Shown here: positions 20,929 to 26,159 of the stretch, piece after piece | Layout of the letters: each line of letters begins with the position of its first letter | Numbering within the stretch: the stretch's first letter is position 1 | DNA from: an uncultured Lachnospiraceae bacterium | GTDB taxonomy: Bacteria; Bacillota; Clostridia; Lachnospirales; Lachnospiraceae | Length of the DNA stretch: 64,000 nt | Direction: 5' to 3' | Assembly: GCA_947164865.1 (NCBI GenBank) | Contig: CAMUYA010000016.1 | Location: 1,603-65,602, forward strand | Notes under the pieces: model-generated | The model's database searches: none | What the model was told of the DNA's origin: nothing | The model's input: only the letters and a program-made list of their open reading frames with translations | Made by a program: the position numbers and the translations under genes

Positions 20929-23007
20929 CTATTCTTTGTCTGTCTTTGCCGCATCGATCTCGCGCTGCGCGATGTCATTGGGAGCCTGCTCATATCTTGC
21001 AAACTCATACGAGAACACGCCGCTTCCCCTTGTCATGGAGTAGAGCCTTGTGTCGTATTCATAGAGCTCAAGATAAGGGATCTCTGCAGTGATCTCGGTG
21101 TTGCCGTTTCCGACGGGATTCATTCCCAGCACCTTGCCTCTGCGCTTGTTGAGATCACCCATTACATCTCCGGTGAAATCATCGGGTAAAGTGACCGTAA
21201 GGGTTGCAATGGGCTCGAGAAGCACGGGATCGGAATTCATGAATCCCTGCTTGAATGCCTGCTCTGTAGCGACCTTGAATGCAAGCTCGGATGAGTCAAC
21301 CGTGTGATAACTTCCGTCGTAGAGAGTAACCTTTACTCCGGTAACGGGGTATCCTGCAAGAGGACCTGCCTTGACTGATTCCGCAACACCCTTTTCGACT
21401 GCGGGGAAGTAGTTCTTTGGAACCGCACCGCCCACAACCGTCTGTTCAAATACATACTGGCGCTCTGAGTCATAGGAAGGCTCGAGATAGATCTTGACAT
21501 GTCCGTACTGTCCGTGTCCGCCCGACTGCTTTTTGTATTTGTACTCGGTATCGGATTTCTTGCGTACAGTCTCCTTGAAGGCAATACGTGGCTTTTCGAG
21601 CACGATATCGACTTTGTATTTGTCGGACAGTATGCTCTGAACCACATCGAGCTGCTGACCGCTTATACCGTAAAGGAGTGTCTGTCCGTTTTCGGCATCG
21701 TTTACTGTCTTGAGTGTAAGATCCTCTGCGCACATCTTGGCAAGTGCCTGTGAGATCTTGTCCTCATCGCCCTTGTTCTTGGCCTTATAGCTTCTGTAAA
21801 CGTAGGGCTTTGAGATAGCTGCGCGCAGGTAGGTAACGGGATTCTTTCTGGTGGAAAGTGAATCCGTGGTCTGGGTGACTGCCAGCTTTGCAAGAGCGCC
21901 TAAATCTCCTGCGTGAAGCTCTGCAACTTCCTCGGCCTTTCCTGCGCTGAATATGTAGAGCTTTCCAATCTTTTCATCCGCATCACGGTGATAGTTGAAA
22001 AGCACATCATCAGGCTTGAGCACGCCTGAATTAACCTTGATAAGTGAATACTTTCCAATGAAAGGATCCACGATGGTCTTGTATACGTAAGCCGACTTTG
22101 GCTTAGAGAAATCATAATCCGCCTCAAATACTTCGTTGTTGGTGGTATTGATTCCCGCACATTTACATCTGTCGGGGCTGGGGAAGTATTTGATGATGTC
22201 GGCCATGAGAGTATACATTCCTCTTGCAAGTGTATTGGATCCCATGAGCACCGGCACGATGGAGCCGTCAAACACGCCGACTCTCATTGCAGCTCTGATC
22301 TCGTCCTCGGAGAATTCATCTCCTCCGAAGTATCTTTCCATAAATTCTTCGCTGGTCTCGGCTACTGCCTCTAAAAGTACGTCACGGCAAATCTTGAGGT
22401 TTTCCTGTGAATAATCGGGAACGTCGAATTTATCGACCTTTCCCTCGGCATTCCAGCGTTTAGCCTTCTGCTGGATAACATTAACGTATCCTACAAATTC
22501 TTCGTTCTCGCGGATGGGAAGGTGGAACGGAGCTATTCTCTTGCCGTAAAGATCCTGCAGATCCTTAACTACATTCTTGAAGCTGGCCTTGTCGATATCC
22601 ATCTCGGTAACGAATACCATTCTCGGAATCTTTTTCTTTTCGCACATTTCCCATGCACGCTTAGTTCCCGCTTCGATACCGGCCTTACCTGACACAACTA
22701 TGATAGCTGCATCGGCCACCGAGAGTGCTTCCTCTGCCTCTCCTATGAAATCAGGTGATCCGGGAGTGTCAAGGAGATTGATCTTGTAATCCTCCCAGGG
22801 GATCGCGATCAGTGTAGTGTTGATGGATATTCCTCTCTTGACCTCTTCCTTGTCATAGTCACTGAGAGTGTTTCCGTTTGCGGTGCTGCCCATGCGTCCG
22901 GTTACCCCTGCCAGGTACGCCATCGCTTCCGCAAGCGAAGTCTTTCCACAGCCTCCGTGCCCCAAAAGCACTACGTTTCTGATCTTGTCAGTAGTAAATA
23001 CGTTCAT
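20929..23007 (-). CDS. fusA: Elongation factor G paralogue (EF-G2/fusA2 type)
   Basis: GHGGCGKTSL, RGISI, DTPG, KKQSGGHGQYG, DGSYHTVDSSELAFK, LLEPI, GDVMGDLNKRRG. Start at ATG 23007, 9 nt after AAGGAGG. Confidence 0.92.
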   Translation of the reverse strand: MNVFTTDKIRNVVLLGHGGCGKTSLAEAMAYLAGVTGRMGSTANGNTLSDYDKEEVKRGISINTTLIAIPWEDYKINLLDTPGSPDFIGEAEEALSVADAAIIVVSGKAGIEAGTKRAWEMCEKKKIPRMVFVTEMDIDKASFKNVVKDLQDLYGKRIAPFHLPIRENEEFVGYVNVIQQKAKRWNAEGKVDKFDVPDYSQENLKICRDVLLEAVAETSEEFMERYFGGDEFSEDEIRAAMRVGVFDGSIVPVLMGSNTLARGMYTLMADIIKYFPSPDRCKCAGINTTNNEVFEADYDFSKPKSAYVYKTIVDPFIGKYSLIKVNSGVLKPDDVLFNYHRDADEKIGKLYIFSAGKAEEVAELHAGDLGALAKLAVTQTTDSLSTRKNPVTYLRAAISKPYVYRSYKAKNKGDEDKISQALAKMCAEDLTLKTVNDAENGQTLLYGISGQQLDVVQSILSDKYKVDIVLEKPRIAFKETVRKKSDTEYKYKKQSGGHGQYGHVKIYLEPSYDSERQYVFEQTVVGGAVPKNYFPAVEKGVAESVKAGPLAGYPVTGVKVTLYDGSYHTVDSSELAFKVATEQAFKQGFMNSDPVLLEPIATLTVTLPDDFTGDVMGDLNKRRGKVLGMNPVGNGNTEITAEIPYLELYEYDTRLYSMTRGSGVFSYEFARYEQAPNDIAQREIDAAKTDKE

Positions 23008-23091
23008 GCCCAAATTCCTCCTTCTCGAGTTATAAAATTTGTACCCTAATCACTATTCTAACACATTTTTCTGTCTTTTAATATCCTGTTT

Positions 23092-23472
23092 TAACTTGCA
23101 GGTTAATGTACTATCGGTAATTCATTTTATTTAGTGACGGCATGGACAATATGAGTTGTAGTTTGTCTCATGGGCTCTGCTGCTAAGCGCGACGCCTAAT
23201 TCGATCAAACTACAATCTCATATCGCCCATACCTGTCGCTAAGTAAGTATTATTGTTGATTACTTAATCAGTAACAGCGAGTTCGTGCAAATGCTATGCT
23301 GAGAGCAATGTGTCTGAGGCCGGCACTTACTGAGAACGAGTGAAACGAAGTTCGAAGTTAGTACCGCTGCTCGAAGACCCATAGCTGCGAAGCGGTGCGC
23401 GAAGCATACATTTGTGCGGACTCGCGTAACTCAGTTACTAATAAACTCGATAGTAAGTTAAACTGCAAGTTA
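23092..23472. mobile_element. 381-bp MITE-like element / highly structured non-coding repeat
   Basis: 25-bp terminal inverted repeats with 22/25 identity (TAACTTGCAGgTTAAtgTACTATCG at 23092-23116, mirror at 23448-23472), TA at both ends, nested long internal stems, no convincing ORF. Confidence 0.65.
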
Positions 23473-25077
23473 TCCCACTATTTTGTGAAGAGCCTTGCGG
23501 ACAGCGCCGGTTCCTGCGATAAGCTCATTAAAATATTCTGTGACAAGCTCAGCAAGCCCTGCCTTGAACAGATCGACACCCCATATAGTCGCATCCTCAA
23601 GAAGATCCTTAAGCGCATCTGCGGACACCTTGTCTCCGAGCTTTATTCCGGCAACAACCTTCATCGAAGCCTCAAGCCTCGGATCATCGCTGGGCTTGAA
23701 CTCTTTTCCGCTGTCATCAACAGCCATAAGATACCTGAGCCATCCCGCAAATACAAAAGGAATGCACTTAAGATCTCCCACATTCATCCCTCTTGCGATA
23801 TAATTCTTGATCGTCTCGCCGAATCTGATGGGAAGCTTCTGCGAAGTGTCGGTTGCGATCCTCTGAGGAGTATCCGGCATAAAAGGATTGGGCACGCGCA
23901 CGTTGAGTACCGTATCTATGAACTCCTTGGGATCCAGCACTCCGGGATCAACCACGACGGGAAGTCCCTCTTTGTAACCGATGATCTCCACAAGCTTCTT
24001 CAGATCAGCATCCTTCATCTCGTCGGATATTCTGGTGAATCCCAACAGACATCCGTATACGGCAAGAGCTGTGTGCAGAGGATTGAGGCATGTGCAGACT
24101 TTCATCTTCTCAACCTTGTCAACAGTCTCTCTGTCGGTAAAGATCACTCCCACTTTGTCAAGCGCAGGCCTTCCGTTGGGGAAGTTATCCTCAACCACAA
24201 GGTACTGAGTCTCCTCCGCATTTACAAAAGGCGCTACATATGTTCCCTTTGTGGTAACCACGGGATCAAGCCCGTCGAGAGCGTCACTGCGCAATATATC
24301 CTCAACCGATGCATCAGGCCTCGGGGTTATCTTATCTATCATTGACCAGGGGAATGAAACCCTGGCAGGATCGTTGATGTAATCCAGGAACTCCTTCTCG
24401 GCTTTTCCGTTTTCGCCCCACGCCTTTGCAAATGCGCTCACTGCTCCATAAAGCTTATCACCGTTGTGTGAGCAGTTGTCCGTGGAAAGCATTGTAATGG
24501 GAAGCCTTCCGGCCTTAAATCTGGCATAGAGAAGGGCTGTCACTTTTCCCATGTATGTCAGCGGCCTTTCGGGGCCTTTGGTGAAATCCGATATTATGGC
24601 GGGAGCAACAGTGCCTGCGGCATTTACTATGCTGTAGCCTTTCTCCGTGATGGTAAAGGTGGCCATCTTGAGCGAAGGAGACGTAAATATTTCTTTTAAT
24701 CTGTCAAATTCGGCACCGTTTTCCGAGTCCAGAATGCACGATTCCGAAACAGATCCGATCACTCTTTTGCCGATGGATCCGTCGCTCTTAAGCGTCACAA
24801 GCACCGACAGATTATCGTTATTCCTGTAGGACTTTTCGATTATCTCATAATCAAAACCCTCGATAACGATAACACCCTTGTCGGAATAGCCCTTTTCCAG
24901 CATATCCTGGCTGAGTGCGGCATGGAAAGCGCGGAACAGATTACCGCCGCCGAAGTGCACCCATTCGGGGTTCTTCTTTGTGTTTTCGCTTACGGATGCG
25001 ATGTCGAATTTGGGAAGATCATAACCCTTGTCTTCCCACTCTTTTTTGTTGCTGATACCGCTTAAACTGAGTTTCAT
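23470..25077 (-). CDS. uxuB: D-mannonate oxidoreductase (mannitol dehydrogenase family)
   Basis: WVHFGGGNLFRAF, TFTITEKGY, LSTDNC, MIDKITP, KVCTCLNPLHT, DTSQKLPIRF; overlaps uxuA by 4 nt. Confidence 0.85.
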   Translation of the reverse strand: MKLSLSGISNKKEWEDKGYDLPKFDIASVSENTKKNPEWVHFGGGNLFRAFHAALSQDMLEKGYSDKGVIVIEGFDYEIIEKSYRNNDNLSVLVTLKSDGSIGKRVIGSVSESCILDSENGAEFDRLKEIFTSPSLKMATFTITEKGYSIVNAAGTVAPAIISDFTKGPERPLTYMGKVTALLYARFKAGRLPITMLSTDNCSHNGDKLYGAVSAFAKAWGENGKAEKEFLDYINDPARVSFPWSMIDKITPRPDASVEDILRSDALDGLDPVVTTKGTYVAPFVNAEETQYLVVEDNFPNGRPALDKVGVIFTDRETVDKVEKMKVCTCLNPLHTALAVYGCLLGFTRISDEMKDADLKKLVEIIGYKEGLPVVVDPGVLDPKEFIDTVLNVRVPNPFMPDTPQRIATDTSQKLPIRFGETIKNYIARGMNVGDLKCIPFVFAGWLRYLMAVDDSGKEFKPSDDPRLEASMKVVAGIKLGDKVSADALKDLLEDATIWGVDLFKAGLAELVTEYFNELIAGTGAVRKALHKIVG

Positions 25078-26159
25078 CTCTTCTCGATTCCTCTCGTGTG
25101 ACTCTTTTCTATAGCCTCCCAGAGCCCGTTGAGATACGTAGCTCCGAGAGCCCTGTCATAAAGCCCGTAGCCGGGCATTGCCACCTCATCCCATATCATT
25201 CTGCCGTGATCTGGACGGATCGGTCCGTCAAATCCTATGTCATAAAGTGCCTTCATGATCTCATACATATCAAAGCTTCCGTCGCTTGAAAGATGAGCCG
25301 ACTCCTCAAAATTGGTAGGGGAGTGGAACTTAAGGTTGCGGACATGGGCAAAATGAATGCGTCCTTTCAGGGATCTGATCATATCCGGAAGATCGTTTTC
25401 CAGATTTGTTCCGTATGAACCCGAGCAGAAGGTTACTCCGTTGTGGGGATTATCCACCATCTGCATCATGCGTAGAATGTTTTTCTTGTTGATGATGATC
25501 CTGGGAAGACCAAATACACTCCATGCTGGATCATCGGGATGGATGGCCATGTTAATGTCGTACTTGTCGCAGACAGGCATTATCTTTTCCAGGAAGTACT
25601 TAAGGTTTGCGAAAAGCTTTTCGTCGTCGACATCCTTATACTGCTCAAAAAGCTCCTTGATGTGAGCCATTCTCTCAGGCTCCCATCCGGGAAGTATCGC
25701 GCCGTTTGCATCCCCCGCTATCATATCAAACATTTTCTCGGGCTCTATGGCATCTACAGCTTCCTGAGTGTAAGCAAGCACGGTGGATCCGTCGGGGCGC
25801 ACTCTTGCAAGCTCCGTTCTGGTCCAGTCGAATACCGGCATAAAATTGTAGCAGACAAGATGAATATCTTCTTTTCCGAGATTCTCAAGAGTCTCTATAT
25901 AGTTAGCGATGTACTGCTCGCGCTCGGGCGCACCGGTCTTGATCGCGTCGTGTACGTTAACGCTTTCGATACCGGATATGTGAAGGCCTGCCGCAGCCAC
26001 CTCATCCTTGAGAGCTTTGATCCTCTCTCTGCTCCAAACTTCACCGGGCTGTGTGTCATAAAGCGTCGTGATGACACCGGTCACCCCGGGGATCTGTCTT
26101 ATCTGTTTTAAAGTAACGGTATCGAACTTCGACCCGTACCAGCGAAAGGTCATTTCCAT
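25074..26159 (-). CDS. uxuA: Mannonate dehydratase
   Basis: MEMTFRWYG, ESVNVH, CYNFMPVFDWTRT, AIHPDDP, HFAHVRN, PIRPDHGR, PGYGLYDRALG. Confidence 0.97.
   Translation of the reverse strand: MEMTFRWYGSKFDTVTLKQIRQIPGVTGVITTLYDTQPGEVWSRERIKALKDEVAAAGLHISGIESVNVHDAIKTGAPEREQYIANYIETLENLGKEDIHLVCYNFMPVFDWTRTELARVRPDGSTVLAYTQEAVDAIEPEKMFDMIAGDANGAILPGWEPERMAHIKELFEQYKDVDDEKLFANLKYFLEKIMPVCDKYDINMAIHPDDPAWSVFGLPRIIINKKNILRMMQMVDNPHNGVTFCSGSYGTNLENDLPDMIRSLKGRIHFAHVRNLKFHSPTNFEESAHLSSDGSFDMYEIMKALYDIGFDGPIRPDHGRMIWDEVAMPGYGLYDRALGATYLNGLWEAIEKSHTRGIEKR

Follow-up and report, generated by a model that had tools for sequence, protein, structure and literature searches.

Two head-to-head members of a widespread Lachnospiraceae family of structured intergenic repeats form a composite, probably mobile element between uxuB and an EF-G paralogue

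Two divergent (head-to-head) units of different sub-families, one of them truncated, make up the 381-bp hairpin-rich stretch at 23092-23472, which lies between the 3' end of a uxuB-like gene and the 5' end of the gene for an EF-G paralogue. All positions without a contig name are those of the window, the whole stretch of 64,000 nucleotides that was analysed, which corresponds to C16:1603-65602 of a draft genome of 2.94 Mb (99.6% complete, and broken at repeats). The family to which the units belong is multicopy, and its copies have been gained, lost, truncated and replaced between sister species. On balance, we think it probable that the composite is a non-autonomous mobile repeat whose fold is needed in single-stranded form, and which is propagated by an enzyme supplied in trans, with the caution that the weights given to this reading and to its rivals are rough and overlapping.

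The uxuB-like gene (23470..25077, minus strand) encodes an oxidoreductase of the mannitol-dehydrogenase family with the Pfam domains Mannitol_dh and Mannitol_dh_C, and its stop codon overlaps the end of the element; UxuA is encoded immediately upstream of it (25074-26159). On the other side, the EF-G paralogue (20929..23007, minus strand; Pfam GTP_EFTU, EF-G_D2, EFG_III, EFG_IV and EFG_C) starts with an ATG at 23007-23005, 84 nt from the left end of the element. An exact-protein look-up of uxuB, aimed at strain variants, returned no record. An earlier note on this DNA had proposed a MITE-like element framed by 25-bp inverted repeats, and these ends were recovered at 23092-23116 and 23448-23472 (22/25, or 88% complementary), as was the overlap of the right-hand TA with the uxuB stop, given that TTA at 23470-23472 is the stop codon of the ORF 23470..25077(-). 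The nested stems were recovered as well, at 23139-23155/23217-23233, 23156-23165/23206-23215 and 23277-23293/23409-23425. When the region 23085-23480 was folded, the plus strand yielded -154.4 kcal/mol (z -9.47) and the minus strand -145.7 kcal/mol (z -10.27), and none of 100 shuffled versions folded equally well. The proposed preference for the plus-strand fold held for the right half of the element (-64.4 kcal/mol on plus vs -52.5 on minus) but not for the left half, which is slightly more stable on minus (-56.8 vs -54.1 kcal/mol on plus), and such an opposite behavior of the two halves agrees with the presence of two oppositely oriented units. The two GCGAAGC words singled out as mini-hairpins are indeed present, at 23389-23395 and 23401-23407; the former, however, is the apical loop of a small hairpin, where most other copies read C-GNRA-G, and the latter is the 3' strand of a tandem-G.A internal loop, so that both are parts of a larger fold rather than independent mini-hairpins. 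The claim that the element sits directly upstream of the promoter of the EF-G paralogue was not supported, as no promoter-like site was found in or beside the element; likewise, no terminator-like site was found in or beside the window copy.

Read from left to right, the composite opens with the 3' tail of unit 1 (23092..23139, minus strand; ...CCGTCACTAAA-TAAAATGAATTACCGATAGTACATTAACCTGCAAGTTA), which holds the left inverted-repeat arm. Unit 1 itself (23140..23235, minus strand) is a long hairpin and a truncated member of the sub-family that we call H1, devoid of an inner arm of ~110 nt that was lost between two CTTAG/CTAAG words. Complete H1 units (~230 nt) are found at C24:24668-24895, C1:121329-121556, C23:54960-55190 and C14:14635-14863, each with an extra inner hairpin. 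On the minus strand, unit 1 has the same kind of ending as unit 2 (…CCATGCCGTCACTAAA), and a manual alignment of three features (outer stem, tail and CUUAGCGA/GAGCUUAG motif) suggests that H1 is kin to unit 2; searches with our covariance model R1 did not recognise H1. Between the 5' ends of the two units lies a spacer of 39 nt (23236..23274) that takes part in a weak palindrome (23233-23249/23261-23277, 76%) and in which no sigma-70-like promoter was found. Unit 2 (23275..23426, plus strand) is a complete three-way-junction unit of ~150 nt, made of a long outer stem, P1 (23277-23293/23409-23425), an irregular conserved arm with tandem G.A pairs (23318-23370, GGCCGGCACUU...UUAGUACCGCUGC), and a short hairpin (23386-23397). 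The R1 match to this unit, C16:24877-25040 or 23275-23438 in the window, scored 165.1 bits with an E value of 2.4e-40, and in this region the plus strand is 12 kcal/mol more stable than the minus strand. The right tail (23427..23472, plus strand) reads TAAC-TCAGTTACTAATAAACTCGATAGTAAGTTAAACTGCAAGTTA, where the C and G that complete CGTAAC are at 23425-23426, holds the right inverted-repeat arm, and ends with the three bases of the uxuB stop codon. Each unit, in other words, bears an outward-pointing 3' tail of ~45 nt, and the two tails together make up the apparent terminal inverted repeats (TIRs). Because of this, and because each unit also occurs alone, the view of a single MITE with simple TIRs had to be abandoned, although the multicopy, mobile, non-coding and hairpin-forming nature of the element was borne out.

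The composite is not a single-copy feature, as BLAST against its own 2.94-Mb draft genome returned 43 pieces. Four blocks that are also found apart from one another can be told among these pieces: ~100 nt at the left end, a first hairpin (positions 91-231 of the element), a second one (184-346), and ~80 nt at the right end. The second hairpin has at least 10 stand-alone copies in the genome; once aligned, these start with CAG, end with CGTNACTAAG, and have a conserved core. Element positions 1-104 were found as BLAST pieces at 9 other places, mostly contig ends, and at least 17 contig ends break inside copies, which indicates that the family fragments the assembly. The sequence at C1:121132-121387 is 98% identical to the window copy over 256 nt, and other composites, C24:24633-25242 and C1:121124-121596, share its layout with extra hairpins in the apical loops; composites of this layout occupy at least three loci. 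Three-way-junction units number 24-26 according to nhmmer and R1 (26 R1 matches in the genome), and further sub-families include ~10 H1 units and ~10 units of the type that we call SF4. Tails homologous to those of the window are found at 20 places in the genome, compared to 1 for the reversed control of the tail motif, and in this species and its sister these tails end in TTAAACTGCAA-NN-TA. Close pairs of units, as read from the match listings, are always arranged minus-then-plus, that is head-to-head (~13 in the genus, 3 in this genome, 5 in other genera). The partners of such pairs often come from different sub-families, which implies that they fold separately and not on each other. Other repeats were seen next to some units. 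A threefold tandem repeat of ATGATGTAATATACT immediately precedes a stand-alone unit (L006 ~1410-1470, G000:C9:32540-32600, G000 being the genome of the window), where a block of ~340 nt, unit included, is missing from the sister species. Tandem arrays of an ~11-nt repeat (TTAATTCTTGG, complement AAAAGACCAAG) flank two different units (G000:C25:600-745 and G000:C3:43030-43200), and this repeat may be a second family associated with the units.

The fold of the three-way-junction unit is conserved. RNAalifold, applied to 24 units of this genome, predicted 41 pairs, 31 of which show double changes. With the refined three-way junction, 90.9% of the cells of the own-genome alignment are paired, compared to 28-40% when the partner strand is slid, and double changes are seen in 38/56 pairs. 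For 85 units from other genera, the alignment of which (A2) was fitted to R1 and hence inflates the pairing figures, 92.4% of the cells are paired vs 34-44% upon sliding, 49/55 pairs carry double changes, and 0/500 shuffles reached any of these measures; covariation, which the earlier note had suggested checking, is strong across genera. The outer stem differs in sequence between copies and yet retains its pairing. The conserved part of the unit comprises the short hairpin, the loop of which is always a GNRA (GAGA, GAAA, GCAA, GCGA or GGGA), and an irregular helix that contains tandem G.A, U.U and C.A mismatches (GCCGGCACUUAGCGA…/…GAGCUUAGUACCGCUGC). G.U pairs exceed A.C combinations by 53 to 17, an excess that implies a preference for one strand. 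Compensatory patterns in long perfect stems can also arise in the absence of selection, through template-switch correction of quasi-palindromes, and covariation in the outer stem alone is therefore no proof of selection; it is the conserved mismatches, together with the GNRA loops, that argue for selection on the fold. Two orthologous units of the sister species, L198 and G000:C32:8539-8705, differ at ~8 positions per outer-stem arm and also in the inner hairpin, yet each is perfectly paired, and their flanks are only ~83% identical; either one was replaced by another variant, or their arms changed very rapidly and in concert.

R1 matches were obtained in 32/33 congeners (1-26 copies each), in one out of three other genera that were sampled first (30 copies), and in 94/300 genera of the same GTDB family, or about a third, a run in which a per-genome count of 9 units is to be read as at least 9. 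A scan of public genomes with an exact pattern returned more than 115 loci in rumen and gut Lachnospiraceae MAGs, Roseburia inulinivorans DSM 16841, Blautia, Fusicatenibacter, Oribacterium, Eubacterium spp. and Mogibacterium/Anaerovoracaceae MAGs, whereas phage collections, plasmid collections and viral contigs yielded no match to the family. The model matches L073, L098 and L106 come from the cultured carriers Roseburia inulinivorans DSM 16841, Lachnospiraceae bacterium FE2018 and Eubacterium sp. MSJ-21. The family has no match in Rfam 15, HEARO, IS605-orfB, Clostridiales-1, ribozymes and riboswitches included, a check that was also among those suggested earlier: a permissive scan of the window region gave FasX as its sole result (E 0.3, far under the gathering score), and six loci from other genera returned only spurious matches to plant miRNA hairpins below gathering. 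Our search of the literature on Lachnospiraceae repeats or motifs found no specific description of it. The tail motif RTTAAACTGYAA is distributed quite differently from the core, with 20 copies in the species, 6 in its sister G015, and at most 2 in the other congeners. As the core is found in many genera and the tails are nearly private to two species, the core unit is old and widespread, and the tail shell that creates the "TIRs" is recent. In another genus, each single unit lies inside a different and longer outer palindrome (GGGGTGGGGAAA…TTTCCCCACCCC). Two good matches to the model were also seen on MAG contigs labelled as Muribaculaceae, of the Bacteroidota (L054:1050-1209 and L093:2776-2935), which suggests that the contigs were misbinned or that the element moved horizontally.

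Comparison with the sister species, with flanks 92-98% identical, revealed how these copies come and go. In one case, a clean 148-nt indel is filled in G015:C118 and empty in G000:C20, with an ambiguity of only 3 nt (AGC), and the empty site already contains the conserved CGTCAC word that follows the unit; on these grounds, insertion and precise deletion are indistinguishable. No unambiguous target-site duplication emerged from the comparison. Remnants of internal deletions are found at C40:15151 and in the flhB-flhA spacer of G015, and the units at C26:36976, C3:31544 and C9:32638 are absent from G015, where the flanks differ. At four loci (uxuB/EF-G, upstream of ilvA, C22:11781 and C32:8539) the site is shared by both species but occupied by a different unit in each. 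The uxuB/EF-G synteny is retained in six congeners, and the empty sites that the earlier note had suggested looking for in relatives do exist, as this spacer measures 43 nt and is empty in G004 and G008. The same spacer hosts a different unit of ~230 nt in G016 and G017, a single R1 unit on the gene strand in G032, and an extra gene plus two tails with no unit between them in G011. In the latter genome (L169:360-1030), the extra ORF between uxuB and the EF-G paralogue is on the minus strand, and the bare pair of tail ends lies next to the uxuB stop (CTTGTAGTTTAATGACCAATTTAAACTGTAG). Copies that are 98-99% identical occupy unrelated loci, which points to recent spread.

Whether the composite could be a classical TA-targeting MITE, that is, an internally deleted derivative of an IS630/Tc1-type element moved by cut-and-paste through its TIRs in the way of RUP or Correia elements, is a question that mainly concerns the shell. 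The 25-nt inverted ends, the shared layout of the composites, and the excess of the tail motif over its reversed control would all fit such an origin, as would the TA flanks pointed out in the earlier note: 15/20 tail ends in the genome read CTGCAA-NN-TA, and 3/4 complete composites, including the one in the window, have a TA at both ends and in register. A TA duplication is thus plausible for the shell, judging from these junctions. However, no clean empty site proves such duplication, as scans of the sister genome and of metagenomes (empty allele; left junction) returned no empty allele of a composite, and the two bases between CTGCAA and TA are variable and not complementary within the element. 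A duplication of five bases (GTNAC) was also considered as a general rule and discarded, being limited to the composite copies of the SF1 type, where it looks like a prolongation of the outer stem. No transposase with matching ends could be identified either. This genome lacks DDE_3 (IS630), the presence of which does not track copy number, and although the sister species has a single IS630-like element, its ends (CTAGTATAGCTGTT...) are unlike those of the repeat (TTGCAGTTTAA). Moreover, the TTAAACTGCAA-ended tails are common to ~10 composites in the species and its sister, but the inner units, which have variable ends and also occur tail-less, are independent of the tails and far older and more widespread, and their conserved centre and variable termini are the reverse of what a MITE would display. 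For these reasons, we regard the MITE explanation as unlikely.

The search for other mobilising enzymes was equally negative. Y1_Tnp (PF01797) is absent from G000 and G035, which carry 26-30 units, and present in G034, which carries none, and no unit adjoins the Y1 genes of relatives. RVT_1 (PF00078) is absent from G000, G015, G035, G176 and G300, all multicopy carriers, and the IS110 DEDD domain (PF01548) gave no match above cut-off in G000 or G035 and does not track copy number. Several congeners possess ORFs of 270-320 aa whose Y1_Tnp domain is weak and whose length sets them apart from the IS200 type (~140 aa); such long ORFs are found at L207 and L208 (G027:C149 and G008:C23, respectively), in both cases with no adjoining unit, and at G016:C8:124753-125085. 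In G000, contig C50 (4480 bp) encodes a protein of ~445 aa similar to integrase-core (rve-type) transposases, a Mu B/TniB-type ATPase-like protein of ~277 aa and a zinc-finger ORF; as read from its translations, C50 resembles a Tn552/Mu-like transposon, and it shares no sequence with the repeat family.

A second alternative would see the units as functional structured RNAs, such as a guide or scaffold, a ribozyme, or a protein-binding regulatory or processing element, with genes copied around the genome and selection acting at the RNA level. The architecture speaks in favor of it (a three-way junction with GNRA loops that never vary, tandem G.A pairs, mismatches that are conserved, and arms of variable length), as do covariation across genera, conservation of the core across the bacterial family and beyond, and the strand asymmetry seen in both the G.U count and the folding energy. 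Many copies, furthermore, are followed at a distance of 20-40 nt by a ribosome-binding site and an ATG of the same strand. Orientation relative to genes, however, is nearly random: according to gene contexts derived from crude ORF calls, unit and downstream gene share a strand in 45 of 78 cases and differ in 33, with ++ contexts outnumbering -- contexts elsewhere (30 vs 16) and the opposite being true in this genome (7 vs 11). The fold is equally intact whether units are sense or antisense to host genes (0.871 vs 0.858, p 0.26), the genes downstream form a mixed set (ilvA, flhA, sigA and others), no enrichment of -10 boxes was seen upstream of units, and the 85 contexts studied revealed no recurrent neighbouring protein, no adjacent large ORF, and no transposase or integrase nearby. 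To this we should add that close relatives have anywhere from 0 to 30 copies, that nearly identical copies attest to recent spread, and that the best matches of 19 congeners share no syntenic master locus. The family is not a gene-linked RNA, and we consider the functional-RNA reading unlikely.

It is also conceivable, even if we rate it as quite improbable, that the three-way-junction unit is the recognition or catalytic module of an undescribed mobilisation system, in which a folded strand is acted upon by a host or unrecognised enzyme, or in which the RNA is self-processing or acts as a guide. Such a system would explain spread and site-specific exchange without Y1, IS110, IS630 or reverse-transcriptase genes.

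More doubtful still is the possibility that the units behave as cassettes exchanged by site-specific recombination on folded ssDNA, in a manner similar to attC/Xer, docking at CGTNAC-TAAG and possibly relying on a host recombinase. In the genus, nearly all units are followed by CGTNACTAAG, a word that the one clean empty site already contains; different units occupy the same site in sister species with the flanking tail retained, and the invariable head-to-head arrangement would be expected if the pair occupied the two half-sites of a palindromic docking site. The lack of a dedicated transposase in the genome would also be accounted for, and by eye the GTTAAAC in the tail fits the attC consensus GTTRRRY. 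Against these cassettes, just one clean case underlies the argument from the empty site, conservation of the 3' word is loose in other genera, where the word is part of an extended outer stem, and no integron-like arrays or association with integrases were seen, the units being scattered singly among housekeeping genes. Replacement, in addition, could equally result from homologous recombination between the ~45-nt tails.

Four further candidates were rejected: a riboswitch or cis-regulatory leader by near-random orientation, diverse downstream genes and the lack of a terminator; a retroelement-borne RNA (group II intron or retron) by the absence of a reverse transcriptase gene in five multicopy carriers; an IS110/IS1111 bridge (seek) RNA by the absence of a DEDD gene in G000/G035 and of a large adjacent ORF; and REPIN/REP-RAYT by the absence of a Y1/RAYT gene in the genome and by doublet units of 150-250 nt instead of ~20-40 nt.

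To return to the non-autonomous mobile repeat that we favor, the composite would have been built from two head-to-head members of an old and widespread Lachnospiraceae family of structured intergenic repeats. Folds stay intact whatever the direction of host transcription, from which we infer that the fold is required as a single strand, either as ssDNA or as an RNA copy, for propagation by the trans-supplied enzyme. The element would then have landed in, or been exchanged within, the spacer between uxuB and the EF-G paralogue, which is a recurrent landing site in the genus. A transcript reading through from uxuB to the EF-G paralogue would be predicted to contain unit 1 in sense and unit 2 in antisense, both as long double-stranded stems.

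Structured, MITE-like intergenic repeats are known in other bacteria, and include Correia/NEMIS in Neisseria, RUP and BOX in Streptococcus pneumoniae, ERIC in enterobacteria, and bcr in the Bacillus cereus group. BOX, ERIC, Correia and RUP, along with REPINs, are the nearest biological analogues of our units. Like Correia, RUP, BOX, ERIC and bcr, the family described here is short, non-coding, multicopy and intergenic, forms stable hairpins, occurs in either orientation, and varies in presence between relatives; its modularity recalls BOX, and its TA-rich flanks recall RUP and Correia. It differs from all of these, however, in having a conserved centre (the irregular helix in the three-way junction) and variable termini, in reaching roughly one in three genera of a bacterial family where the others are limited to one species or genus, and in showing no parent IS and a head-to-head arrangement of units often from different sub-families. 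REPINs, which are REP doublets mobilised by RAYT Y1 transposases, share with our units the occurrence as inverted doublets and singlets, a structure thought to be read in ssDNA, and an enzyme acting in trans; their units, however, measure ~25 nt compared to 150-250 nt here, where partners are often from different sub-families. The resemblance to IS200/IS605 elements and to the omega-RNAs of TnpB/IscB lies in the insertion beside a short conserved word with no obvious duplication, in the strand-specific fold, and in a structured RNA-like module of ~150 nt that ends at the boundary. Unlike IS200/IS605, the family is found in a genome with no Y1, has no IS605-orfB/HEARO match in Rfam and no adjacent large ORF in the 85 contexts, and has units with mutually paired ends in place of separate subterminal hairpins. 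Among published categories, the closest is that of the 'mobile/repeat sequence candidates' (MRSC) from the genome-wide ncRNA surveys of the Breaker laboratory, defined by a conserved, structured, multicopy motif with inconsistent orientation, the structure of which may matter as DNA (PMC11109978). The family is indeed a structured motif, multicopy and inconsistently oriented, even though it has no Rfam counterpart and no transposase or integrase nearby, and Lachnospiraceae are not mentioned in that work (PMC11109978).

Lachnospiraceae are dominant bacteria of the gut and rumen, and a repeat found in about a third of their genera, with up to ~30 copies per genome, interrupts short-read assemblies and remodels the DNA between genes, operon-internal spacers included. 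The family is also well defined, having a covariance model and showing clear covariation, and has no entry in Rfam. The conserved irregular helix points to a specific partner, and if that partner proved to be a new mobilising enzyme, or if the RNA itself proved to be active, these repeats would represent a new type of bacterial mobile element. Otherwise, they would still provide a useful annotation class and a marker of strain-level variation.
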